Shown: positions 1 to 10,335 of the stretch, piece by piece
How the letters are laid out: each line of letters opens with the position of its first letter
Numbering within the stretch: position 1 is the stretch's first letter
Virus record (IMG/VR): IMGVR_UViG_2529292833_000014
Reading direction: 5' to 3' (one strand)
Length of the DNA: 10,899 bases
From: a virus
Taxonomy: Duplodnaviria > Heunggongvirae > Uroviricota > Caudoviricetes
The notes under the pieces: generated by a model
What the model was told of the DNA's origin: nothing
What the model saw: the letters and a program-made list of their open reading frames with translations, nothing else
The model's database searches: none
Translations under genes and position numbers: made by a program

Positions 1-1230
1 ATGAGCAGAGCACTTAACAAACTGAGCGATACACAGCTAAGAAAAATCAACGGCACACCAGCCCCAAAAACCACATTTCTTAATGACGGTGGAAACCTGA
101 GCGTCAGGCATTCCACCAGCGGCTTGTTAACCTGGTATTTCACCTACAGGGCAGGAGCTGGACGCCAGGTATCACCGGAACGCCTGAAGCTGGGAAATTA
201 TCCTGATCTGAGCCTGAAAGCAGCCAGGGAAAAAGCGGCACAGTGTCGCGCATGGCTGGCAGAAGGAAAAAATCCACGCCATGAGCTTAATTACTCCATA
301 CAGGAAGCACTAAAGCCGGTAACGGTGGGTGATGCGATCAGCTACTGGCTGGAAATGCACGTAAAGGAAAACCGTGTCGATTACGTATGCCTGAAAAGCC
401 GCCTGAATAATCACGTCATACAGCATATTGGCAATATGCCACTGGATAAATGCGAGTTACGTCACTGGCTGGCCTGTTTTGACCGGATACGCAAAAAATC
501 CCCTGTAACGTCTGGTCACATGATGCAGGCGTGTAAACAGGCGCTTAAGTTCTGCCGTAAACGTCGCTACGCAGTCAGTAACGTTCTGGATGATCTTAAC
601 GTGGTGGACGTTGGCAAAAAACCAGGCATAAGCGAACGCGTGCTGAGCAACAAAGAACTTGGCGAATTATTACAGGCGCTGGATAAAAAAATATTCCCGC
701 CCTACTACAGCGCACTAATCCGCCTCCTGATTGTGTTCGGCTGCCGAACCGGAGAACTGAGATTATCGGAGATCAGGGAGGGGGATTTTAAGGAAATGCT
801 CTGGACAGTACCGAAAGAGCACAGCAAAACGAAGGTCGCCATATTCAGGCCAATACCGGAAAGCATTTTACCGTTCGTCACGCAGCTGGTGGAGCAGAAC
901 AGACACACAGGGCTATTACTCGGGGAACTGAAACAGGAAGCCAGTGTGTCGCAATACGGCAGATTCATGCACAAAAAATTAAACCATCCGCACTGGTCAC
1001 TACACGATATACGGCGCACGTTTACCACGATGCTGAACGATTTAGGCGTGGATCCGCATATTGTCGAACAACTCACCGCTCACCAGATGCCAGGGATGCA
1101 GCGAGTCTATAACCACTCCCGTTATCTCGATGCGAAACGTAATGCGCTGGACATGTGGACAGAGCGGTTAGAGATACTGGCGGGTACTCACAAAAACGTA
1201 ACCACACTGCCAATAGCCAGAGAAATATAA
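1..1230 (+). CDS. int: Tyrosine recombinase / phage-type integrase (P4-like Int family), 409 aa
   Basis: Full-length ORF. C-terminal region has the HxxR box (HDIRRTF) and a downstream tyrosine (RVYNHSRY) typical of tyrosine recombinases; N-terminus resembles the P4/CP4-57 integrase arm-binding region. The ATG is at window position 1, so upstream signals cannot be assessed. Confidence 0.9.
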   Translation: MSRALNKLSDTQLRKINGTPAPKTTFLNDGGNLSVRHSTSGLLTWYFTYRAGAGRQVSPERLKLGNYPDLSLKAAREKAAQCRAWLAEGKNPRHELNYSIQEALKPVTVGDAISYWLEMHVKENRVDYVCLKSRLNNHVIQHIGNMPLDKCELRHWLACFDRIRKKSPVTSGHMMQACKQALKFCRKRRYAVSNVLDDLNVVDVGKKPGISERVLSNKELGELLQALDKKIFPPYYSALIRLLIVFGCRTGELRLSEIREGDFKEMLWTVPKEHSKTKVAIFRPIPESILPFVTQLVEQNRHTGLLLGELKQEASVSQYGRFMHKKLNHPHWSLHDIRRTFTTMLNDLGVDPHIVEQLTAHQMPGMQRVYNHSRYLDAKRNALDMWTERLEILAGTHKNVTTLPIAREI

Positions 1231-1250
1231 TTTTTTTTGCGATTTTTTAG

Positions 1251-1310
1251 AACTGACACAACGTGAAACAACGAGACACCACGACGAACAACGGCGAACA
1301 ATCTGGAACA
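1251..1310. repeat. Helically phased direct repeat array, five to six 10-bp units (consensus ACGnnGAACA)
   Basis: Seen directly: units ACGTGAAACA, ACGAGACACC, ACGACGAACA, ACGGCGAACA, ATCTGGAACA begin at 1261, 1271, 1281, 1291, 1301 with exact 10-bp period, 20-80 bp after the int stop. Confidence 0.5.
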
Positions 1311-1597
1311 AACTTGATTAACATCTGACTGACACCCTAAAAAGTTGATTTTCAGTCGTTTTACTGGCTTTTTGTACATTGGCGAATCACTCTTAAAAAC
1401 ATGTAAAAAAGGCGTAAAAACAGAATTTTATGCCTTTGCACCACAATGAATTAAAAGAGTTTTTATTCTCATTACCACACTTCTGTAAAATGACCGCCGC
1501 CAGTGTTTGCCATTCCATAAACACCCTGACACAATCCGACGCACCACAACACAATAGGACACCAAATAACTCTTTAAGAAATATCAAAGGGGGAATT

Positions 1598-1786
1598 GTG
1601 TTAAGCACAGATCGCTTTATACGTGAAAAAGAATGTCAGCAACTTACAGGCCTGAGCCGTTCATGTCGGTACCGCCTGGAAAAAACCGGACAATTCCCAT
1701 CACGGCGTAAGCTCGGCGGTCGTTCCGTTGGCTGGTCTTTATCCGAAGTTCTGGCATGGAAGGAAAGCTGCGAGGCAGTTCACTAA
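1598..1786 (+). CDS. alpA: AlpA-family (MerR-like HTH, excisionase/activator type) regulator, about 62 aa from a GTG start
   Basis: Motif QQLTGLSRSCRYRLEKTGQFPSRRKLGGRSVGWSLSEVLAWKES matches the AlpA/Xis-type HTH pattern (LGGR.VGW). GTG at 1598 follows AAAGGGGGA by 4 nt; the ORF is open back to 1430, but that N-terminal extension lacks an RBS and looks non-coding. Confidence 0.7.
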   Translation: MLSTDRFIREKECQQLTGLSRSCRYRLEKTGQFPSRRKLGGRSVGWSLSEVLAWKESCEAVH

Positions 1787-1838
1787 TCAGGCTGGCGGCA
1801 CACAGCCGCCACCCATCCACTAATACAGAGATCTAACC

Positions 1839-2216
1839 ATGAATACTGGATATTCTCCCGAACAAGGGCGGGGCTTCGTTCGTCCTGAAAAACAGAATCT
1901 GCAAAATTTTGCCGAAATTATTCCGGTTATTTCCGGCCTTACTGGCGGGAGTGAAACCAATATTGTTAACGCCAGAGCGTTGCAGATGTTTGATGATAAA
2001 AAGGGAGTAAATTTAACTTACACCCCTGACGGCAATCAGAATATGAGCATTATCTCTGAGTCAGGTTTCTACAAACTAATAAAAACAAAAAGCGCCCCGT
2101 TGCCGGAGCGCCTTTGTGAACAATTAACCTACTGCGCAAAAAATGAATCTGAGCAGTGGGATTATATCAACCGTGTGGCGAAGCGCCACAATTGCCGGAT
2201 AACAGGCAAAACAAAG
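1839..2216 (+). pseudogene. Bro-N-like (phage antirepressor N-terminal domain) gene remnant; only the N-terminal ~125 codons look protein-like
   Basis: Translation DDKKGVNLTYTPDGNQNMSIISESGFYKLIKTKSAPLPERL resembles the Bro-N core (EKGV.LT...GG.Q.MSIINESGLYSLI..S..PEA). The same frame then runs on to 3251 as Ser/Arg-rich low-complexity sequence, antisense to better ORFs and across a promoter region. End coordinate is approximate. Confidence 0.3.
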
Positions 2217-2314
2217 GCCACCCGCTACGGTGGCCCCTCGACACAAGCTACACGTTATCCCCAACGCATGAGCATCACCAACAATGCCACATTTGCGGCT
2301 GGTGGGCAATGTGA

Positions 2315-2503
2315 TCAGTCAGATTTGGTTCGTTCCAAGGTTTGCAACGAGAGCTTTTTCCTGTGCTCTTTAAGGAATTTCTCAAGAGCAAAAGCACATG
2401 GCGCGAATCTTTCTGATTCATGCTCTATCTTTCTGCGCCGTCTTTTCCGTGCCGGTGATAATGTTTTGGTCAATTCTTTATCGGTCATTGTGTTGTCCTG
2501 CAT
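2315..2503 (-). CDS. Hypothetical small basic protein (62 aa)
   Basis: ORF on the minus strand directly downstream of the 2546..2851 gene and co-oriented with it; Lys/Arg-rich (ARKRRRRKIEHE). No recognisable domain. Weak support. Confidence 0.3.
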   Translation of the reverse strand: MQDNTMTDKELTKTLSPARKRRRRKIEHESERFAPCAFALEKFLKEHRKKLSLQTLERTKSD

Positions 2504-2545
2504 AGCAATGCGCCGTAATACCTTACACCACGGCGCTGGTGATGG

Positions 2546-2851
2546 TCACTCCTGCTCTTTGGCCTTGCGACGCTGGAGTTCTTCACGCGCGACGGTGATG
2601 AGTTGCCCGATCTCCTCGGCTGCTTTGACTCCGATTTTTTCCACCTGCGCCAGTGCATCGAGCGAAGAAACCAGGGGATTTTCTCCGCTTCCTTCTGCCT
2701 GGCGGCGGGCGATCTCACCGCGAACGGCTGTAATCACGAAAGCGGCTATTGTTTCCCCTTCCGTTTTCGAATTTTCCATTTCCTCGATTACATCATGGGG
2801 GAAGCGGATATTTTTCATTTGCGATCTGCTGTTGATATTTCCTGTTGCCAT
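2546..2851 (-). CDS. Putative small DNA-binding regulator (101 aa), possibly ribbon-helix-helix type
   Basis: Protein-like composition, in contrast to the Ser-rich opposite-strand frame. The N-terminal segment KNIRFPHDVIEEME followed by helical stretches is compatible with an RHH fold (inference). Transcribed divergently from the operator-bearing promoter region. Confidence 0.5.
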   Translation of the reverse strand: MATGNINSRSQMKNIRFPHDVIEEMENSKTEGETIAAFVITAVRGEIARRQAEGSGENPLVSSLDALAQVEKIGVKAAEEIGQLITVAREELQRRKAKEQE

Positions 2852-2872
2852 CAGAATGTCCGGTTATTTTGA

Positions 2873-2975
2873 GGTGTGCATACATTACACCAAAAGGTGT
2901 GTAAATAAAACACTTGACACTGTAGCGCACTTAAATTTAATCTGTACACACACCAATGATTGTGGTGTATGTACA
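2873..2975. promoter_or_regulatory. Divergent regulatory region: sigma70-like promoter (TTGACA 2914..2919, N16, TTTAAT 2936..2941) with repeated operator-like motif GGTGTRYRTACA
   Basis: Seen directly: GGTGTGCATACA (2873..2884), GGTGTGTAAATA (2896..2907), and an inverted pair TGTACACACACC (2943..2954) / GGTGTATGTACA (2964..2975) with a 9-bp spacer, immediately downstream of the -10 element. Confidence 0.5.
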
Positions 2976-3047
2976 GCAAAGCCCCGCAGTGCTGGAACAC
3001 ATGCAGGGCTTCTAACCACCAACGATAGCGAAAGTATCGAGGTAGCT

Positions 3048-3251
3048 ATGAGAAATTATACCAGACACCCGCAAGGGCGGGACTCGTACAACCTGAATAA
3101 ATACATCTGGCGTTTTATCGCCCTGAGCACGGCACAACCGCGCGTGATTACCATTGAGGCCACCAGCGAACAGGAAGCGCGTCAGCAATCTCCTGATGGC
3201 TGCGTGATGGTATTCGCTGCCCGTATTCGCCAGGGGGAACACCATGATTAA
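3048..3251 (+). CDS. Small protein (67 aa), Icd-like (host cell division inhibitor-like) family candidate
   Basis: ATG at 3048 preceded by GAGGT; motifs YIWRF and VMVFAARIRQGE resemble small prophage/satellite proteins annotated as Icd-like (from memory, moderate certainty). It is the C-terminal part of the long 1839..3251 reading frame. Confidence 0.5.
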   Translation: MRNYTRHPQGRDSYNLNKYIWRFIALSTAQPRVITIEATSEQEARQQSPDGCVMVFAARIRQGEHHD

Positions 3252-3453
3252 CCTGTCACTTACTGACCTTAACCGCGTTCAGTTTCGTGAGAAATTTACC
3301 GGGCAGCTACTGGTCAATGTGGATAAAGGTCGCGTGGTGTGTAATTACCACCTGCCAGATGAAGCCATTGTCGCAACAAGGGAATCATTACAGGAACTCG
3401 CAGAACGTGCCGGAATGATTAACGCGAATATTCAGGGGGTGAGCCATGCATAA
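3244..3453 (+). CDS. Hypothetical small protein (69 aa), paralog 1 of a tandem pair
   Basis: RBS GGGGG 6 nt upstream; start overlaps the previous stop by 8 nt; shares a (V/Y).(V/L)(D/E)KGRV.C core with the next gene. Confidence 0.6.
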   Translation: MINLSLTDLNRVQFREKFTGQLLVNVDKGRVVCNYHLPDEAIVATRESLQELAERAGMINANIQGVSHA

Positions 3454-3658
3454 TCATGAAACGCACTTACCTGTAGTGCTGAATGTGCCATCAGATTATA
3501 CGGGGCGCGTACTGGTGTATCTGGAAAAAGGCCGGGTTAAATGTCAGTGCCGTTTAATGGAAAACGAATTTATTAGCACTCTTGCGGGATTTTCTGAAAT
3601 GCTCACTAAATCGGGTGTTAGTGCAGACCAGTTACGCGGGGGCGATTATGCGAAATAA
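3446..3658 (+). CDS. Hypothetical small protein (70 aa), paralog 2 of a tandem pair
   Basis: RBS GGGGGTGAG upstream; overlaps the stop of paralog 1; about 30 percent identity to paralog 1 by eye (TG..LV...KGRV.C...L.E). Confidence 0.6.
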   Translation: MHNHETHLPVVLNVPSDYTGRVLVYLEKGRVKCQCRLMENEFISTLAGFSEMLTKSGVSADQLRGGDYAK

Positions 3659-3866
3659 ACATGATATTGAAGACCTGGCATTTGAAGCCCTGCACTCTGC
3701 GAAAAAAATCAGGGAAGTCGTCAATATGTGGATGAACAGCCTTAGCACCGATGAATCCGATAGCAGAGAGGAAATTCTTATTTCTTTGTTGTTAGACCTG
3801 GCAAATACACAGGTTTCTCTGACATCTGATATTGAACTCGCCGCTAAAAATCTGCCTCTGGAGTAA
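3648..3866 (+). CDS. Hypothetical small acidic protein (about 72 aa)
   Basis: ATG at 3648 in the 3582..3866 frame, overlapping the previous stop by 11 nt, G-rich RBS upstream. No recognisable domain. Confidence 0.45.
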   Translation: MRNKHDIEDLAFEALHSAKKIREVVNMWMNSLSTDESDSREEILISLLLDLANTQVSLTSDIELAAKNLPLE

Positions 3867-3872
3867 AAAAAC

Positions 3873-4172
3873 ATGAAACAGAAAAATTCTGGCTTTACTG
3901 CCAGTGGTCTCCCTCGGCCTGAAATCCGCCCCGGCGATATTTTCCGGGATAACTACGGTGGCACGGTAACGATTAAAAGCGTGGCGGGGCGGGGCGTTAC
4001 TTACCGCCGTGATGGGTACGGCTATGACTGCGTGATGCCTGCTTATCAGTTCCGGCGTGATTTTTCACTGATACAGGCCACACCACGCAAACAGCCCACC
4101 AGCAACGCAAAGGCACGGGCAAATATTCAGAAAATGAAAAACATGATTAACGCATTCAGGGGCAAAAAATGA
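3873..4172 (+). CDS. Hypothetical protein (99 aa)
   Basis: RBS GGAG about 8 nt upstream; stop overlaps the start of the replication gene (ATGA). No recognisable domain. Confidence 0.6.
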   Translation: MKQKNSGFTASGLPRPEIRPGDIFRDNYGGTVTIKSVAGRGVTYRRDGYGYDCVMPAYQFRRDFSLIQATPRKQPTSNAKARANIQKMKNMINAFRGKK

Positions 4173-5584
4173 AACTGGCACCGAACTTAAAAAAACAGCC
4201 ACACGACAAAATGACCGAAGTCATTATTTTTGCGGGTAGTGATGCCTGGGCGCACGCGAAACAGTGGCAGGAACAGGACGGGCGACTTGCTGGTGATAAC
4301 GTCCCGCCTGTATGGCTGGGAGACAGCCAGCTTGACGAACTGGCAGACCTGAAAATTATCGACGATGGTCGCTATTGTGTCCGGCTGTACAAGGCAGGCC
4401 ACATCAAGCCGTCAAATATTAATGCTATCGGGCAAAAGCTGGCGGCGGCAGGTGTACGGGATGCGAATTATTACCCTGATGGAATGCACAGCCAGAAGCT
4501 GGAGAACTGGCACGACTACCTGCAACGGATCCGCGAACAGGCAGAGCGCGGGGAAATACTTACTGACGAGCAATACAGCCAGCGAAAAACCACGCTACCA
4601 ATGAGCATTGGATCTGCAGGGTACGACACACAGCTTGATTATGTCGTTAAGGGCGTGATTCCGGCTAATTCATTGTGCAGCACATACGGCGCGAGCGGTT
4701 CCTATAAATCGTTCCTCGCGTGTTCCTGGGCGTGTCATGTTGCCACTGGCCGTCACTGGGGAGGCCGCAGGGTGGCGCATGGTTCGGTGATGTATGTTGT
4801 CGGTGAAGGTGGCATTGGTGCCCCCCGCCGTATCAAGGCATGGGAAATCGTTAATGATGAACGGGTGGAAAATCTGTACCTGGTAAACCGCCCGATTTTT
4901 CCGGCAGTCCCGCTTGATGTTGATGAAATGGTCATCGCTTCCCGCCAGGTTGAACGGGAAACGGGTAAACCGGTACGCATGATTATTCTTGATACGCTGG
5001 CGCGTTGCTTTGGCGGTAATGATGAAAATGACGCGCGGGATATGGGGGCGTTTATCCGTGGATGTGACGAACTGAAACGCCGCACAGGGGCCACGGTGCT
5101 GGTGGTTCACCATTCCGGCAAGGATGAAACAAAGGGGGCGCGTGGTTCCAGTGCATTTCGTGCATCTCTGGACGCTGAATACCGTATTCGCCGTGAAGGT
5201 GCAGACAGTGAAGCCCTGGTTATCTCCTGCACAAAAATGAAGGACGCGGAGGAACTGAAAGAGGCCGCATACGATTTACGTGTGGGGGAGCTTTTTACCG
5301 ACACTGACGGGGAGTTAATCACGTCGCTGGTTGTTGTGGATAAGCCGCGCCCACCCGTTGAACTGGAGCGCATCGAGGAAGCCGGGAACAAGACGGAGAA
5401 TCATGCCGCGCTATGGGGCTGTATCCGTTCACGCACACAGCGCGGAGATAAATGCACTATTCCGTTGTTGCGCGATGATATGAAAAAGCTGGGGTATGAG
5501 ATGAAACACTTCCGGCGCTGGCTGTACAAGCTGGAAGGTGATGGCGTTATTGCTATTGACGGTGATGACGTGCGCCCACTGTAA
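4169..5584 (+). CDS. Replication initiator / RepA-like (AAA_25, RecA-fold) ATPase with a probable C-terminal DNA-binding domain, 471 aa
   Basis: P-loop-like YGASGSYKSFLA, Walker-B-like hydrophobic stretch ending in D (MIILDTLARCFGG), and VLVVHHSGKD typical of RepA/DnaB-like AAA_25 proteins; followed immediately by an iteron cluster. Translationally coupled to the upstream gene. Confidence 0.8.
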   Translation: MKLAPNLKKQPHDKMTEVIIFAGSDAWAHAKQWQEQDGRLAGDNVPPVWLGDSQLDELADLKIIDDGRYCVRLYKAGHIKPSNINAIGQKLAAAGVRDANYYPDGMHSQKLENWHDYLQRIREQAERGEILTDEQYSQRKTTLPMSIGSAGYDTQLDYVVKGVIPANSLCSTYGASGSYKSFLACSWACHVATGRHWGGRRVAHGSVMYVVGEGGIGAPRRIKAWEIVNDERVENLYLVNRPIFPAVPLDVDEMVIASRQVERETGKPVRMIILDTLARCFGGNDENDARDMGAFIRGCDELKRRTGATVLVVHHSGKDETKGARGSSAFRASLDAEYRIRREGADSEALVISCTKMKDAEELKEAAYDLRVGELFTDTDGELITSLVVVDKPRPPVELERIEEAGNKTENHAALWGCIRSRTQRGDKCTIPLLRDDMKKLGYEMKHFRRWLYKLEGDGVIAIDGDDVRPL

Positions 5585-5776
5585 AAAGTGGGTAGTAAAA
5601 GTGGGGAGTGTGGGGAATTTAACAAAATTGAAACGTGATTCCCCACTTTCCCACCTGTATATACCCCAAAAAGTGGGGAATAAAAAACACATTGAAAAAC
5701 ATCACGTTAGAATCACAAAAAAAAGAAGTGGGGAGACGTTGGGTAATTTCAAAAAGTGGGTAGTAAAAGTGGGGAG
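5583..5776. repeat. Iteron-type origin of replication: two identical 26-bp direct repeats flanking further AAGTGGGGA(G) copies and an AT-rich spacer
   Basis: Seen directly: AAAAAGTGGGTAGTAAAAGTGGGGAG at 5583..5608 and 5751..5776 (identical); extra copies at 5609..5617, 5671..5680, 5726..5735 and one inverted at 5639..5648; AT-rich stretch 5680..5725. Confidence 0.65.
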
Positions 5777-5785
5777 CAGTGAGGA

Positions 5786-6037
5786 ATGACCAGAAAAACC
5801 AGAGATAAGACAGCGCCAAAATATAAAGCGTTAGACATGACAGAGCACGCCTTAAAGGTGGCAATCAGAACGATAGACCGCCACGCTGGGGAAGGATACG
5901 CGAAAGCACACCCCGAACTGATAAGCGCATTCATGACCACGACGGCGGCAAACTTTGCCACGCTGACAGAACGGGAGATTGCCGAAGCGGAACAGGTGAC
6001 AACCATCAACGTTAAAACTGGAGAGCAGACAGCATGA
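5786..6037 (+). CDS. Hypothetical protein (83 aa)
   Basis: GGGGAG 9 nt upstream of the ATG; stop overlaps the ssb start (ATGA). No recognisable domain. Confidence 0.5.
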   Translation: MTRKTRDKTAPKYKALDMTEHALKVAIRTIDRHAGEGYAKAHPELISAFMTTTAANFATLTEREIAEAEQVTTINVKTGEQTA

Positions 6038-6399
6038 CAGCACAGATAGCGGCTTACGGGCGGCTGGTGGCTGACCCGCAGTTAAAGACCACCAGCAAGG
6101 GTACACAAATGACGATGGCTAGTATGGCGGTCCCCCTTCCGTGCAGCCAGGCAGATGACGGAACGGCGACGATGTGGTTATCCGTCCTGGCGTTTGGCAG
6201 ACAGGCCGACGCACTGGCAAAACACCACAAAGGCGAACTGGTGAGCGTGGCGGGTAACATGCAGGTAAGGCAGTGGACAGGCCAGAACGGCGAAACGCGG
6301 CAGGGCTGGCAGGTTATCGCAGACAGTGTAATCAGTGCCAGAACGGCGCGACCGGGCGGCAAAAAAAAGGTCAACAGGACCAGGCTACTGACGCACTGA
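6034..6399 (+). CDS. ssb: Single-stranded DNA-binding protein (OB-fold core), 121 aa in the zero frame; the canonical acidic tail is encoded in the -1 frame
   Basis: WLSVLAFGRQADALAKHHKGELVSVAGNMQVRQWTGQNGETRQGWQV aligns with the E. coli SSB core (WHRVVLFGKLAEVA...GQLRTRKWTDQSGQDR). The zero frame ends ...GGKKKVNRTRLLTH without a tail. Confidence 0.75.
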   Translation: MTAQIAAYGRLVADPQLKTTSKGTQMTMASMAVPLPCSQADDGTATMWLSVLAFGRQADALAKHHKGELVSVAGNMQVRQWTGQNGETRQGWQVIADSVISARTARPGGKKKVNRTRLLTH

Positions 6400-6458
6400 A
6401 CAGGGCAAAACAACAGTCGGGGAATGATGATCCGTACGGCGATAATATACCGTTTTAA
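6363..6458 (+). other. -1 frame segment encoding the SSB linker and acidic tail (...QQSGNDDPYGDNIPF), reached from the ssb frame at the A8 run / A_AAA_AAG heptamer (6363..6369)
   Basis: Seen directly by translating the -1 frame from the A run 6361..6368. The tail tip DNIPF matches the conserved SSB C-terminus (DDDIPF in E. coli SSB). Confidence 0.6.
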
Positions 6459-6475
6459 ATTCTGCAAATAAAAAA

Positions 6476-6504
6476 ATGCCGGAAGAAAATAGATTTTCCG
6501 GCAT
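6476..6504 (-). terminator. Intrinsic-terminator-like hairpin oriented for leftward transcription
   Basis: Perfect 9-bp stem ATGCCGGAA (6476..6484) / TTCCGGCAT (6496..6504) with an 11-nt loop. The A7 run at 6470..6476 becomes the U tract only on the minus strand; there is no T run after the hairpin on the plus strand. Confidence 0.4.
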
Positions 6505-6675
6505 GCTACATAAATCCCGACCAAAGGAAGTAAATACATTAACACGAATTATCAGCACTGAAGTTGTCACGGCAGATTTTATACAACATTGCACTTGGTT
6601 GCATGTATTCGCATAGCAAATATCGGTGATAGCATATATCCACAATTATTTTTAATGAATGCAAAGAGGATGCGT

Positions 6676-7716
6676 ATGGTTGATTTATATTCGCCTGCCC
6701 AGCTTGTGCAGGTGGCTAATGCTGAAGATGTGCAAAAAAAATTAAATGCGTTGTTTACCAGTTTGTTTTTCACTCGCTCGGTAATGTTTGAATCGAGAGA
6801 CATTATTCTTGATACGATCGACGATCCAAATATCCCGATCGCGGCGTTTTGCTCTCCTATGGTGGGCAGTAAGGTTTCACGAGATGAGGGATACGAATCA
6901 AAAACAATTCGCCCTGGCTATATGAAACCGAAAAGCAGCATTGATCCAAATAAGTTAGCTGTGCGCCCTGCTGGTGTGTCACCTGAGCAATACAATGCTT
7001 TTGGGGCGCGTAATATTAAAGTTAAACAGGCGATTGTAAATCAGGCTAAAGCTATTCGTGCACGTATTGAATGGCTTGCTGTTCAGGCAATCACAACGGG
7101 GAAAAATATCATTGAGGGCGATGGTATTGAACGTTATGAGCTGGACTGGAATATAAAACCACAAAATATTATCACGCAGTCTGGCGGTGCTGAGTGGTCA
7201 GGTAAGGATAAAGAAACTTTTGATCCAAATGATGATATTGAGAGCTACGCAGAATTTAGTGAGGGCGTCACTAATATCATCATTATGGGCGGTAATGTAT
7301 GGAAGAAATACCGTTCATTCAGAGCGATAAAAGAGGCTCTGGATACCCGTCGTGGTTCTAATTCCGAACTGGAAACGGCCCTTAAAGACCTTGGTGATTC
7401 GGTGAGTTTTAAAGGGTATATGGGCGATGTTGCGATTGTTGTTTACAGCGGACGTTATACCGACGAGGACGGAACTGAAAAACATTTCCTTGATCCTGAT
7501 TTGATGGTGCTTGGCAATACGGCTCTTCAGGGGATTGTCGCCTATGGCGGTATTCAGGATCCGGAGCTAATCCGAATGGGGCTGACTAAAGCCGAACTTG
7601 CACCGAAAAACTATATTGTGCCTGGTGATCCGGCTATTGAGTACGTACAAACGCACTCTGCACCACAGCCAATACCGGCCCGCATCAATCGTTTTGTTAC
7701 CGTTCGCATTGGCTAA
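6676..7716 (+). CDS. Major capsid protein, lambda gpE-like (about 346 aa)
   Basis: Long collinear matches to lambda gpE as recalled: ITQSGGAEWSGKDKETFDPNDDIESYA vs ITQSGGTEWSKRDKSTYDPTDDIEAYA, and LDTRRGSNSELETALKDLGDSVSFKGYMGDVAIVVYSGRY vs LDTRRGSNSELETAVKDLGKAVSYKGMYGDVAIVVYSGQY. Start chosen at ATG 6676 (GAGG 6 nt upstream); the ORF is open from 6589. Confidence 0.9.
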   Translation: MVDLYSPAQLVQVANAEDVQKKLNALFTSLFFTRSVMFESRDIILDTIDDPNIPIAAFCSPMVGSKVSRDEGYESKTIRPGYMKPKSSIDPNKLAVRPAGVSPEQYNAFGARNIKVKQAIVNQAKAIRARIEWLAVQAITTGKNIIEGDGIERYELDWNIKPQNIITQSGGAEWSGKDKETFDPNDDIESYAEFSEGVTNIIIMGGNVWKKYRSFRAIKEALDTRRGSNSELETALKDLGDSVSFKGYMGDVAIVVYSGRYTDEDGTEKHFLDPDLMVLGNTALQGIVAYGGIQDPELIRMGLTKAELAPKNYIVPGDPAIEYVQTHSAPQPIPARINRFVTVRIG

Positions 7717-7725
7717 GGGGGAGCA

Positions 7726-8067
7726 ATGGCTACTCATTACACTGAACTCATGTCTGGCACTGAAGCACTGGTTACTACGCTGGGGATATTTTCAGCCAAT
7801 AAAGGGGTAATACCTGCGTTTACGCCACTGATGCAGGAAGATGCAACTGGTGCGCTAGTGGTATGGGATGGAACGAGCGCAGGCAAAGCGGTTTATGTTT
7901 CCGCTGTACAAATCGACACAGCGAAAAAAACACAGGCACAGGTTTATAAGACAGGTGTTTTAAATGTTGATGCTCTGAACTGGCCTGAGTCTGTAAAAGA
8001 ACTGTCGGCAAAGGTTGCCGCGTTTGTTGGCTCAGGTATTTCTGTTCAGCCGCTGGCTCGTGTGTAA
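7726..8067 (+). CDS. Head decoration protein, lambda gpD-like (113 aa)
   Basis: FTPLMQEDATGALVVWDGTSAGKAV...YKTGVLNVDALNWPE matches lambda gpD [25 protein letters not shown]...YKSGTFRYEDVLWPE (recalled); similar length; RBS AAGGGGGAG. Confidence 0.85.
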   Translation: MATHYTELMSGTEALVTTLGIFSANKGVIPAFTPLMQEDATGALVVWDGTSAGKAVYVSAVQIDTAKKTQAQVYKTGVLNVDALNWPESVKELSAKVAAFVGSGISVQPLARV

Positions 8068-8078
8068 AGGGGGATACA

Positions 8079-8462
8079 ATGCAGAATCATTACAATGACC
8101 TTAAGCCAATTGCCGAAATGATGTATCCGGATCCAGCAGTAGAGGAATTAAAGGCTATTGCTGACAAAATGCGTTTAAGTGAACGCCTTGTTGATATGAA
8201 TCAGGTGATGGAACTTACTACCCTTAGCCGTCGCACATTGCTAAACCTTGAGGCTCGCGGAGAGTTCCCCGAACGCGTACAGGTTACGGAAGGGCGTGAG
8301 GCCTGGTATTTAAGCGAAGTGATCGACTGGATAAACAATATTCCTCGAGCTTCTGAATATTGCCGCGTACCTGTCCCAAAAAAGCCAGATGCGGCGCTAT
8401 GCCTCAAGATTGAGCGTGTACGCCGCAATGCACGGGATGGTCGCTATAAGTTGATTGGTTGA
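8079..8462 (+). CDS. AlpA/MerR-like HTH domain protein (127 aa) with N- and C-terminal extensions
   Basis: Central segment MNQVMELTTLSRRTLLNLEARGEFPERVQVTEGREAWYLSEVIDWINN has the AlpA/excisionase-type HTH pattern; RBS AAAGGGGGA. Sits between the decoration gene and the cos site. Confidence 0.65.
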   Translation: MQNHYNDLKPIAEMMYPDPAVEELKAIADKMRLSERLVDMNQVMELTTLSRRTLLNLEARGEFPERVQVTEGREAWYLSEVIDWINNIPRASEYCRVPVPKKPDAALCLKIERVRRNARDGRYKLIG

Positions 8463-8488
8463 TGAAATTAGGGCCCGTTCTGGCTGGC

Positions 8489-8600
8489 GGGTCCTTTCCG
8501 GCGATCCGGTAGGCTACGGGGCGGCGACCTTGCGGATTTTCGCTATTTATGAGCCTTTTCGGGTTGGTGGTGGTGGTTTTGTTTTTCGCTCTATCTCTAT
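8489..8600. other. Lambda-type cos site (cosQ-proximal region, cosN with 12-nt cohesive-end sequence GGGCGGCGACCT at 8519..8530, divergent cosB-like region)
   Basis: Seen directly and compared with the recalled lambda termini: GGGTCCTTTCCGGCGATCCGGTAGGCTACG / GGGCGGCGACCT / TGCGGATTTTCGCTATTTATGAGCCTTTTCGGGTT versus lambda GGGTCCTTTCCGGTGATCCGACAGGTTACG / GGGCGGCGACCT / CGCGGGTTTTCGCTATTTATGAAAATTTTCCGGTT. Sequence diverges from lambda downstream of about 8567. Confidence 0.8.
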
Positions 8601-8663
8601 GAATAAAAAGGGAAAGATAACACCAACACACCAACCTGAAACCTTAACTAAGTGGGGATATTG

Positions 8664-9206
8664 ATGAAATCGCACCTGATGAACAAAAAAACTATGGCGC
8701 AAAGCTGCCGCGTAAGTGCGACAGCGTTCGACAAGTGGGGAGTAACTCCCGTTGAGCGTAAAGGCCGTGAGGCGTTTTATGATGTTGCTAGCGTGATAGA
8801 CAATAGGGTTAACAATGCAATTAACCAGCTTACAAACGACAAAGGCGAGATTGATGATGATGAACTTTTACGCGTAAGAATCAGATTGCTGACAGCACAG
8901 GCGGAAGCGCAGGAACTTAAAAACGAGCGCGAACGCGGCGAGGTGATTGATACAAAGTTTTGCATCTACGCGATTTCAAAACTAGCGAGTCAGATTTCAT
9001 CAATCATGGACAGCCTCCCGCTCACAATGCAAAGGCGCTTTCCCGATATAAGGCCGTATATGCTGGATGAACTAAAAAGGGAAATAGCCAAAGCATGTAA
9101 CGCATGTGCAAGACTTGACGAAAACCTGCCACAGATACTGGCTGATTACCTGATGGAAACTACCGGAAGCGCGCCTGAGAAGTTGCTACAGAACAAAGGC
9201 GAGTAA
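8664..9206 (+). CDS. Terminase small subunit homolog, lambda gpNu1-like (candidate packaging-redirecting protein)
   Basis: RLLTAQAEAQELKNERERGEVIDTKFCIYAISKLASQISSIMDSLPLTMQRRFPDI matches lambda Nu1 RLTRAQADAQELKNARDSAEVVETAFCTFVLSRIAGEIASILDGLPLSVQRRFPEL (recalled); the N-terminal NKKTMAQ aligns with Nu1 NKKQLAD. Start is uncertain: ATG 8664 has the best RBS (GGGGA, 5 nt), ATG 8679 fits the Nu1 alignment best, and the ORF is open from 8652. Confidence 0.85.
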   Translation: MKSHLMNKKTMAQSCRVSATAFDKWGVTPVERKGREAFYDVASVIDNRVNNAINQLTNDKGEIDDDELLRVRIRLLTAQAEAQELKNERERGEVIDTKFCIYAISKLASQISSIMDSLPLTMQRRFPDIRPYMLDELKREIAKACNACARLDENLPQILADYLMETTGSAPEKLLQNKGE

Positions 9207-9279
9207 CCGCCGCCCCGTAACGGGCCATAATTCCAGGAAGGACCTGACGACACCAGGCTATCAGAGCGATGGGGGCACA

Positions 9280-9561
9280 ATGACAGAAGCCGAAATACTG
9301 CGATTAATCCGCCGCGTTACCGGAATCAGCCAGCAGGCTGACGAACAGGCCACGCAGCCGGACAGCGTGACCGCTGAAAATTATGTGCGTGTTGTTGCTG
9401 AGGTGATGCGCCGTGACGGTATCGAGCTTAACGGCGTGGATATGCGCAACATACGCACCAGAGTTCTGGAGATGTTGTCGTACCGTCGCCGCGTGCAGAT
9501 GTACCAAGAGAAAGAAAAAATTACTTACCACTGGAAGAAGCCGGAACGGTTACGACGTTAA
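9280..9561 (+). CDS. Hypothetical protein (93 aa)
   Basis: ORF with GGGGG 4 nt upstream of the ATG; no recognisable domain; last gene before the non-coding boundary region. Confidence 0.45.
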   Translation: MTEAEILRLIRRVTGISQQADEQATQPDSVTAENYVRVVAEVMRRDGIELNGVDMRNIRTRVLEMLSYRRRVQMYQEKEKITYHWKKPERLRR

Positions 9562-9567
9562 CTTGTG

Positions 9568-9607
9568 GTGACATACCGTGACGGAGAGTGACACACAGTG
9601 ACAAAAA
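9568..9607. repeat. Four GTGAC repeats at exact 10-bp spacing (9568, 9578, 9588, 9598)
   Basis: Seen directly: GTGACATACC GTGACGGAGA GTGACACACA GTGACAAAAA, starting 7 nt after the stop of the last element gene. Confidence 0.5.
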
Positions 9608-10093
9608 AGACGGTATTTAAATCGGGTGGTGTTTAATACCCCCAGGGGGATAGAAATCCCTACACCTCATTGCTTATGGGACCGCCCGCCTACCCTTGTT
9701 CACATCGCCGCAGGTTCGAAAACTTTTTTTGGGAAGGTGTGCACGGGATTGATAGATGAGGTCTATCTATAAAAAATCACAAAATCCGCGCCATTGCTGG
9801 ATCCGCCAAAAATCCCCCACCTTACGGCAGACAAAGAAAACGCGAATTATGGGCCTGTTGCAGAGAAAAAAGGTCTCACTAGTTTTGCGCACCCTAGCAT
9901 CGAGGTTCGTCAGCCTCCCATCAGCAACCAGATAACTAATCTCGCTGGTGGGCATGATGCCGATATGGGGACTTCCATAACGGTTTATCCGTGATCATCC
10001 ACCAGCTTCATGGCGGATAGCCGGAAAATGATAACGGTATAGCCCGTCGCTTGTGTCTATTTGTTCCGCATTGTTGCATACAGTGCACCGAAC

Positions 10094-10117
10094 GGTGTAG
10101 TTAATGGTGTAGTTAAT
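10094..10117. repeat. Perfect tandem duplication of the 12-mer GGTGTAGTTAAT
   Basis: Seen directly at 10094..10105 and 10106..10117, in the AT-rich region upstream of the Smr-domain gene. Confidence 0.85.
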
Positions 10118-10335
10118 TTGCGATTTTTAACGTTATTTGCAGCGATGTTTGTTGGTTAAATTCAATAAGTTATGCGCATTTAATTATAAATATCGTGAAT
10201 GAATAATCATGCATAAGCATTTTGCTTAAAATATCGGCAATATTTGGAACTTATTACTGGAATTTTGGGTAATACGTTGTTGGACCGACCCGGTCTGGTT
10301 ATCATATCGCGCTCTTAATTGCGGGAGGATGTAAC

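Follow-up and report, generated by a model that had tools for sequence, protein, structure and literature searches.

Lambda-type capsid and decoration genes of a satellite-only lineage in an exchangeable cassette of a cos-type phage-inducible chromosomal island

Why does a phage satellite of about 10 kb encode its own head shell proteins and no other head protein? We addressed this question with a 10,899-nucleotide (nt) stretch of DNA, recorded in IMG/VR as IMGVR_UViG_2529292833_000014 (hereafter the window), which carries at positions 6676-8067 a gene for a lambda gpE-like major capsid protein (E) followed by one for a gpD-like decoration protein (D). A first-pass annotation, made from the letters alone, had taken the pair for a new device by which a helper-dependent satellite places its own shell subunits in helper-built procapsids, plausibly to change capsid size or exclude helper genomes. 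Its view of the element's nature stood, whereas the mechanism and the novelty did not. The window represents a complete cos-type Gram-negative phage-inducible chromosomal island (PICI) of a known Escherichia coli satellite type, with the backbone of the reference island EcCIDi14, an alternative capsid cassette, and the abgR(lysR)-smrA attachment (att) site. Capsid genes of PICIs, and the failure of the analogy with the Ccm protein of SaPIbov5, have been in print since 2018. What is new is that the E/D pair belongs to a satellite-only lineage under purifying selection, that an E-D-AlpA cassette is exchanged between the ssb stop codon and cos, and that most IMG/VR copies lie embedded in a helper E gene. 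The puzzle is that the pair is strongly constrained across Enterobacterales and swapped as a unit, yet is without known phenotype.

The capsid and decoration genes and their island

Both open reading frames (ORFs) are intact and are called by RefSeq at identical coordinates, with tight spacing and strong ribosome-binding sites. The capsid ORF covers positions 4-327 of the 329 in the Pfam model Phage_cap_E (PF03864; E-value 3.6e-41; 141.8 bits, cutoff 22.9) and matches PHROG 29 'major head protein' (1e-88); in the PDB its product matched lambda gpE (7VI9, 2e-77) and 3BQW (1.5e-121). It is 42% identical to lambda gpE from end to end, with the same length and no domain gained or lost. Judged from this identity to the solved gpE and from the crystal structure of a 55%-identical homologue, the capsid fold can be regarded as certain. 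The decoration ORF covers positions 2-111 of the 116 in the Pfam model HDPD (PF02924; 2.3e-15; 57.2 bits, cutoff 29.1), matches PHROG 49 'head decoration' (1e-26), and found the SHP protein of phage 21 (1TD0, 2.8e-16) and lambda gpD (1e-12) in the PDB; it is 40% identical to lambda gpD over 78 amino acids (aa). These Pfam, PHROG, PDB and gpE/gpD comparisons bore out the first-pass assignment of both genes as full-length homologues, and the lambda coordinates (D at 5747-6079, E at 6135-7160) confirmed that the order E then D is reversed relative to lambda. No NCBIfam model matched the pair, and a PADLOC scan of the pair and its neighbours gave nothing significant.

The DNA is that of E. coli, with 99.9% identity to strain 90-9280. 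The island that carries the pair, an int/alpA/RepA element of about 10.4 kb, is flanked by the core genes abgR on the left and smrA on the right. It is bounded by direct repeats of AATATCGTGA, the crossover core, separated by 10,372 bp; the attL copy precedes the window start by 174-183 nt, and the attR copy stands exactly where homology to EcCIDi14 stops. The same sequence is the lysR-smrA att listed in Table S1 of Fillol-Salom et al. 2018 (PMC6092414). Near each end of the island there is also a doubled 12-mer, GGTGTAGTTAAT, the left pair preceding the window start by 22-45 nt. The 2018 table (PMC6092414) gives this motif as the EcCIDi14 'att site core', and at both ends it sits within the element, with the true junction repeat AATATCGTGA about 70-130 nt farther outward. 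We regard the doubled motifs as probably the arm-type sites of the integrase. The left junction of EcCIDi14 is a degenerate copy of AATATCGTGA within an IS110. A 69-nt repeat (D1) was considered as the att site and rejected after comparison with EcCIDi14 and the 2018 table.

The gene set and its order are those of a Gram-negative PICI: a discrete island in the range of about 8-15 kb delimited by att repeats and inserted at a specific chromosomal site, leftmost int and alpA genes co-oriented with the remaining island genes, its own replicase with an iteron origin just downstream, and helper-type cos and terS for packaging. AlpA is the hallmark regulator of such islands. Neither lysis genes, tail genes nor a complete head module came to light when the main ORFs were scanned against Pfam and PHROG and the RefSeq annotation of the flanks was examined. 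Specifically, portal, protease/scaffold and large terminase (TerL) genes were not found among the main ORFs, nor was a portal, protease or TerL gene present in the 12 kb of core genes on each side, in agreement with the first-pass view that the element has no other head gene. Head-tail connectors and HNH were also absent from the main-ORF scans, which separates the island from capsid-forming PICIs (cf-PICIs) such as EcCIEDL933. The latter share the int/alpA/rep logic and a capsid protein of their own, and they carry protease, portal, connectors, HNH, small terminase (TerS) and TerL, whereas the island in the window has only capsid, decoration and TerS. With abgR and smrA as neighbours, it is not a helper-embedded PICI either. 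Families of P4-like satellites (Sid, Psu, delta/epsilon, alpha primase) were absent from the Pfam and PHROG matches, and an Rfam scan of the window for P4-type immunity RNAs gave no match. Helper induction, high-frequency transfer and helper interference have been demonstrated for EcCICFT073 only.

The presence of E, D, Nu1 and cos might by itself suggest what is left of an ordinary lambdoid prophage, with further head genes beyond the window. This reading is refuted by the abgR and smrA flanks with their 12 kb of core genes per side, by the att repeats 10,372 bp apart, and by the PICI gene set and order with near-identity to EcCIDi14, and we give it practically no credence. The proposal that the element is a helper-dependent satellite and not a decayed prophage thus held.

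A satellite-only lineage under constraint, exchanged as a cassette

Among 50,697 phage records, the best match to the capsid protein was that of lambda itself, at 42%. In a large protein collection, identities to the window protein fell into two groups, 100-50% and 43% or lower, and satellite capsid proteins were 38-47% identical to four helper-type proteins (45% for the helper of EcCICFT073 itself). We inspected 15 loci whose capsid protein shares 51% identity or more, spread over 9 genera (Escherichia, Kluyvera, Superficieibacter, Cedecea, Kosakonia, Lelliottia, Edwardsiella, Salmonella and Serratia); a scan of species-representative genomes had given four loci, and further contexts were gathered through protein look-ups. 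All 15 are int-alpA-replicase islands with E followed by D. The single contig inspected from the lower-identity group (42% identical) has a full head module in the order Nu1-A-W-portal-protease-D-E. A neighbour-joining tree separated 56 satellite-type from 66 phage-type protein clusters in 50 of 50 bootstraps when P0044, a lambda/satellite chimera, was left out; the split failed with this one sequence included. These results show that the E/D pair belongs to a lineage confined to satellites.

The pair is under strong purifying selection. For clade-A orthologues, the type present in the window, from five genera, dN of the capsid gene was 0.05-0.14 and dN/dS about 0.02-0.08, with about 0.07-0.11 for the decoration gene, values that are rough because dS is saturated. 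Both genes are present, at 84% nucleotide identity or more, in about 395 of 5,426 complete E. coli genomes, a count of the clade-A allele that is a lower bound, clade B not being counted. In every inspected locus, including 80 of 80 IMG/VR loci, the capsid gene is followed by the decoration gene, and the two proteins diverge in step (r = 0.92 between their pairwise identities, 78 non-independent pairs). Among the regions in which satellites depart furthest from phages, yet agree among themselves, are the capsid N-arm (residues 1-20, 21% identity between the groups) and the start of the decoration protein (first ~30 residues, 13-19%). The corresponding parts of lambda, the N-arm of gpE and the N-terminus of gpD, form a four-stranded sheet together with an E-loop hairpin (PMC5701804), and divergence at these contacts suggests that decoration proteins are each matched to their own lattice. 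Constraint, a complete fold, an obligatory cognate cement protein and satellite-specific signatures are together what would be expected of true lattice builders, and fit a decoy or a relic less well.

Comparison with EcCIDi14 revealed that the pair moves independently of the backbone. Nucleotide identity between the two islands is 94.8% over window positions 1-3246, 97.9% over 3428-6458 and 99.5% over 8488-10198; the Int, AlpA, DUF4222, RepA and TerS protein accessions are identical, and the doubled GGTGTAGTTAAT motif and the right-end core are shared. Positions 6459-8487, however, which hold the upstream element and the capsid, decoration and AlpA-like genes, are essentially unalignable to EcCIDi14 (L104 8579-11058). 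EcCIDi14 has there a clade-B cassette, consisting of a 68-aa ORF and genes for capsid (351 aa), decoration (111 aa) and c1501-like (137 aa) proteins, an allele of the type found in EcCICFT073. The capsid cassettes of the two islands are about 55% identical at the protein level despite the near-identical backbones. EcCIDi14 also differs in location, sitting in an IS110 copy, whereas the island in the window is at abgR-smrA. Since the breakpoints fall at the ssb stop codon and at the first bases of cos (cosQ), the capsid module is an exchangeable cassette. The same cassette, with a capsid protein at least 98% identical, was found joined to at least three integrase and at least three replicase types, with or without TerS. 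The island in the window and EcCIDi14 constitute a natural isogenic pair that differs only in the capsid cassette, which makes its role directly testable.

Two further parts appear to travel with E and D. A homologue of the AlpA-like gene at 8079-8462 adjoins 79 of 80 near-identical capsid genes in the IMG/VR loci, and an element upstream of the capsid operon, TTTATACAnCATTGCAC-N4-TTGCA followed by the extended -10-like GGTGATAGCAT, is kept in eight loci from seven genera. We infer from this conservation that the element at 6578-6635 may be a regulated promoter belonging to the cassette. A generic sigma-70 scan found no promoter upstream of the capsid gene, and the element emerged only from a cross-genus alignment. 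In the window alone the TTGCA-N-TGCA motif was no more frequent than expected by chance, and no copy of a TTGCA-type motif was found upstream of alpA. In the clade-B cassette, an ATTGCA-N5-TGCAAT palindrome abuts a perfect extended -10. Conserved TTGCA-containing repeats or palindromes stand beside an extended -10-like box ahead of satellite capsid operons in many genera, L016, L104, L006 and L018 among the examples. Clade-B cassettes also have a conserved ORF of 68-75 aa (L006 9795-10001, L016 5463-5669, L104 8994-9200) in ATGA overlap with the capsid start; it has no Pfam match and is absent from the clade-A cassette of the window.

Many relatives reside inside helper prophages. In 57 of 80 IMG/VR loci, a proportion biased by the preference of IMG/VR for prophage-linked DNA, the cassette lies within 10 kb of helper-type E-gene fragments (for example L004, L005 and L013); these are satellites embedded in the capsid gene of the helper. 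They correspond to the 11capE-type PICIs (PMC10111431), which carry the cassette of the window, are cos-type and have lambda-like helpers. The satellite of E. coli KW21 (L013) is one of them, with capsid and decoration proteins 98% and 96% identical to those of the window and the same AlpA-like gene. In contrast to the chromosomal island in the window, 11capE-type PICIs are integrated within the helper E gene and have another integrase and primase; TerS is often missing and defence cargo is carried. In KW21, HEPN and DUF262 genes, possible defence cargo, occupy the place of TerS (L013 11291-13007). L018 (Edwardsiella tarda) has an E-D satellite embedded in a helper portal gene, so that L004, L005, L013 and L018 all have the helper-embedded feature, and L019 (Salmonella enterica) has one within a P2-like tail gene cluster. 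Both L018 and L019 fit the published class of helper-embedded PICIs.

Packaging and the possible role of the pair

Beside the E/D pair lie a lambda-type cos site and a gene for a Nu1-type TerS (Table 1), which the first-pass annotation had left out. The cosN sequence is the exact 12-nt lambda cohesive end, GGGCGGCGACCT, present once at 8519-8530. Starting from cosN, the lambda left end is matched at 32 of 34 nt and similarity then fades through cosB; of the 32 nt before cosN, 27 are identical to the lambda right end. TerS starts about 110 nt downstream of cos and is 37% identical to gpNu1 over residues 3-180, including the C-terminal part, which in gpNu1 contacts the large terminase according to the literature. 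The Rpp proteins that redirect packaging are smaller (about 144-153 aa) and form a heterodimer with the helper TerS, whereas this gene encodes a 180-aa Nu1 homologue with no similarity to RppA by BLASTP. A sequence search of the PDB gave no match for TerS, and thereby no tie to the structures of RppC or of the gpNu1 DNA-binding domain. The arrangement resembles lambda in protein families, cohesive end and the succession of cos and Nu1, and differs from it in protein identity (37-42%), reversed E/D order, another cosB, and the lack of A, W, B, C, Nu3 and FI.

Thus cos with TerS is likelier to be the packaging hijack than the E/D pair is. The island TerS would bind the island's own cosB and recruit the helper large terminase gpA, and about four concatenated copies of the 10.4-kb genome would be packaged together in a lambda-size head. 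By arithmetic, four copies of 10,372 bp amount to 41.5 kb, or 85.5% of lambda, and five to 107%; the four-copy size fits published concatemer packaging. The first-pass argument that 10 kb cannot fill a lambda head is met by the same figure and by the published model island, EcCICFT073, which is packaged as phage-length DNA.

Fillol-Salom et al. 2018 (PMC6092414) had already described an E-D pair at this position in the model E. coli PICI EcCICFT073 (c1499/c1500), and a survey reported the capsid gene as the commonest late gene of Gram-negative PICIs, present in 21 of 29 references, along with satellites that are integrated within the helper E gene and carry an E of their own (PMC10111431). The pair was therefore not new, as had been supposed. 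Identity to c1499 and c1500 is 55% for the capsid and 54% for the decoration protein of the window, and PDB entry 3BQW, a 'putative capsid protein of prophage', agrees with c1499 at all 339 aligned residues. The two islands share E then D downstream of ssb and upstream of a packaging gene, and c1504 is 86% identical to the product of 9280-9561. EcCICFT073 differs in having RppA (144 aa) instead of a full Nu1-type TerS, in lacking the second AlpA gene and in its location at ycfD-phoQ. It sits about 8 kb from the icd attachment site of its lambda-like helper prophage (L016/L017, 44933 onward), whose decoration protein is of the phage 21 type and whose capsid protein shares 62% identity with lambda E.

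The analogy with Ccm was tested on c1499/c1500, and all packaged DNA was phage-sized (PMC6092414). Deletion of c1499 or c1500 neither restored lambda plaquing nor altered transfer by the resident helper, and the authors report no phenotype for c1499 (PMC6092414), a negative result repeated for the pair in a review (PMC6893505). Interference and packaging specificity were assigned to RppA, the product of c1503 (PMC6739421); when the EcCICFT073 genes downstream of ori were each expressed from pBAD, only rppA inhibited lambda (PMC6739421). We found no later paper in the literature searched that assigns a function to these satellite capsid genes. Interference is not due to the E/D pair, nor is there any sign of capsid-size redirection by it.

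On the basis of these data we hypothesize, tentatively and with somewhat less than even confidence, that E and D, as co-adapted shell and cement proteins, assemble on the portal and scaffold of the helper and serve an auxiliary, not an essential, function. The genes at 6676-8067 and the AlpA-like gene at 8079-8462 would form one exchangeable, separately promoted cassette. E and D would be made late and would assemble into head shells on the helper portal and protease/scaffold, to be joined by helper tails, with the satellite's own decoration protein stabilising the satellite capsid lattice, so that shell supply would be independent of helper E and D. The benefit would be greatest in helper-embedded relatives that interrupt the helper E gene, where most IMG/VR copies are found; in chromosomal islands such as that of the window, the role would be auxiliary or redundant.

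Several points weigh against this hypothesis. Expression of the E and D genes and incorporation of their products into particles are inferred. The results of the EcCICFT073 deletions imply that any structural role is dispensable with the helpers tested (lambda, phi80 and the CFT073 helper), and at 42-45% identity to helper capsids a fit with helper portal and scaffold is not assured. The constraint is measured by rough dN/dS values, the lowest of which are confined to clade-A orthologues, and the prevalence of helper-embedded copies reflects in part what IMG/VR collects. In addition, the island in the window may be partly decayed, because its ssb gene is frameshifted.

Among the alternatives, it is unlikely, though less so than the other rivals of this kind, that the pair is a functionless passenger, acquired recently by recombination from a helper-embedded satellite or a helper. 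Exchange of the cassette between backbones, the EcCICFT073 pair without phenotype, the frameshifted ssb and a published model of capture in a 'dynamic late zone' all favour such an origin. It is hard to reconcile, however, with the intact frames and with a dN that stays low while dS is saturated in five genera, non-embedded islands included, or with the lack of any phage source above 42% identity. The fixed E-D order, the conserved promoter element, the constant partner gene and the retention of both genes in about 395 complete E. coli genomes likewise speak against it. Similarly doubtful, and to the same degree, is the idea of a halfway stage between classical and capsid-forming PICIs, in which, with natural lambdoid helpers, all-satellite shells would be built on stolen portal, scaffold and tail, perhaps with another triangulation number (T=4 for two island copies), and E-D cassettes would be swapped between identical backbones to match or escape particular helper head types.

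We consider a little less likely again that the satellite capsid and decoration proteins force small heads that exclude the helper genome. SaPIbov5 is also a cos-packaged satellite that encodes a homologue of the helper major capsid protein, and small heads are indeed formed by a Pasteurella PICI that has a capsid homologue among its genes (PMC6092414, PMC6893505). The satellite lineage has conserved signature segments of its own, and by speculative arithmetic, scaling from lambda gives a T=4 head a capacity of about 20.9 kb, against 20.7 kb for two island copies. Ccm, however, makes small capsids and blocks the helper, whereas the homologous E. coli pair does neither: packaged DNA was phage-sized, and deletions left interference and transfer unchanged with lambda, phi80 and the native helper. 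Ccm moreover has no decoration partner and belongs to an unrelated host and helper lineage; the capsid protein of the window is as long as gpE, with no domain added or missing, and selective packaging is already explained by cos plus TerS. The published tests used a 55%-identical homologue and three helpers; for this allele with some other helper, size redirection is unlikely rather than disproved. Less probable than any of these is a role as poison subunits, which would spoil incoming lambdoid capsids by co-assembly. Interference functions are common in this region of satellites and the pair has diverged from helper proteins, but RppA alone inhibited lambda in the pBAD experiment, plaquing was not restored by either deletion, PADLOC found no defence family, and a cognate cement protein conserved alongside would be needless for a poison.

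Other features of the island and its relatives

The order of the island genes is int, alpA, a small variable region, DUF4222, RepA, iterons, a small ORF, ssb, E, D, the second AlpA gene, cos, TerS and a 93-aa ORF, and their coordinates are given in Table 1. The integrase accession WP_001352457.1 occurs in the records of both the window and EcCIDi14. Iterons directly 3' of rep are the probable replication origin, a position that agrees with published PICI origins. The ssb gene is intact in EcCIDi14, EcCICFT073 and other relatives, unlike the copy in the window.

Table 1. Coordinates of the island features in the window and the evidence for each
Feature	Position	Strand	Evidence or remark
Tyrosine integrase, 409 aa, with arm-binding domain	1..1230	+	Pfam Arm-DNA-bind_3 and Phage_integrase
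AlpA regulator, 62 aa	1598..1786	+	Pfam Phage_AlpA 2.7e-18; accession same as in EcCIDi14
YlcI/YnfO-family gene	2546..2851	-	NCBIfam YlcI_YnfO_N 8.2e-18; annotated likewise in EcCIDi14
Icd-like domain	3102..3251	+	NCBIfam phage_ICD_like, aa 422-465 only
DUF4222 protein	3873..4172	+	Pfam DUF4222 1.8e-23; just upstream of the replicase in related islands too
RepA-type helicase/replication initiator, 471 aa	4169..5584	+	Pfam AAA_25 6.5e-44; PHROG 2850 1e-248
Iterons, AAAAAGTGGG-type repeats	5582..5776		Direct-repeat families D3 and D4 (L001 17582-17776)
Single-stranded DNA-binding protein gene (ssb), frameshifted	6034..6458	+	Pfam SSB; RefSeq note 'frameshifted'
Upstream element TTTATACAnCATTGCAC-N4-TTGCA then GGTGATAGCAT (extended -10-like)	6578..6635	+	Cross-genus alignment A4
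Lambda gpE-family major capsid protein, 346 aa	6676..7716	+	ATG preceded by AAGAGGA
gpD/SHP-family head decoration protein, 113 aa	7726..8067	+	Strong GGGGGAG Shine-Dalgarno sequence
Second AlpA-family helix-turn-helix protein, 127 aa	8079..8462	+	Pfam Phage_AlpA 1.7e-8; PDB 8C3T AlpA 1.7e-10
Lambda-type cos site	8487..8552	+	Flanks ~85-94% identical to both lambda ends; cosB side diverges
Nu1-type small terminase (TerS), full-length, 180 aa	8664..9206	+	Pfam Phage_Nu1 1.3e-23
Conserved PICI protein, 93 aa	9280..9561	+	PHROG 1561; 86% identical to EcCICFT073 c1504
Doubled 12-mer GGTGTAGTTAAT x2	10094..10117		Partner copy 22-45 nt upstream of window start
attR core AATATCGTGA	10189..10198		Right end of island; homology to EcCIDi14 stops exactly here

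In the small variable region, a 470-aa 'Icd-like' coding sequence called by RefSeq at 1839-3251 on the plus strand looks over-called: the minus-strand YlcI/YnfO gene lies inside it, and beyond the Icd-like aa 422-465 the rest of the coding sequence has no Pfam match. AT skew changes sign across 2250-3000.

Two relatives of the cassette combine satellite and phage head genes. In an ENA metagenome scaffold of 4,432 bp (L103), the gene at 2801-3829 is a hybrid capsid gene, whose first ~222 codons are those of lambda E and whose remainder is 100% identical at the protein level to the satellite capsid of the window type. It is preceded by lambda-type portal, C and D genes and followed by the satellite decoration and AlpA-like genes, and the junction falls at the only 17-nt exact match between the lambda and satellite E genes. 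The hybrid is either a genuine recombinant of helper and satellite or an assembly chimera. In Lelliottia sp. SL45 (L010 10001-12752), a PICI carries E, D and a gpC-like S49 protease/scaffold gene, the full reverse of the lambda order C-D-E; the last gene is 50% identical to lambda gpC, and its best phage match is also at 50%. A homologue of a head-completion protein lies near alpA in the same island (5117-5518). This island looks like an intermediate towards capsid-forming islands and hints that a larger part of a head module was once present in the lineage or can be regained.

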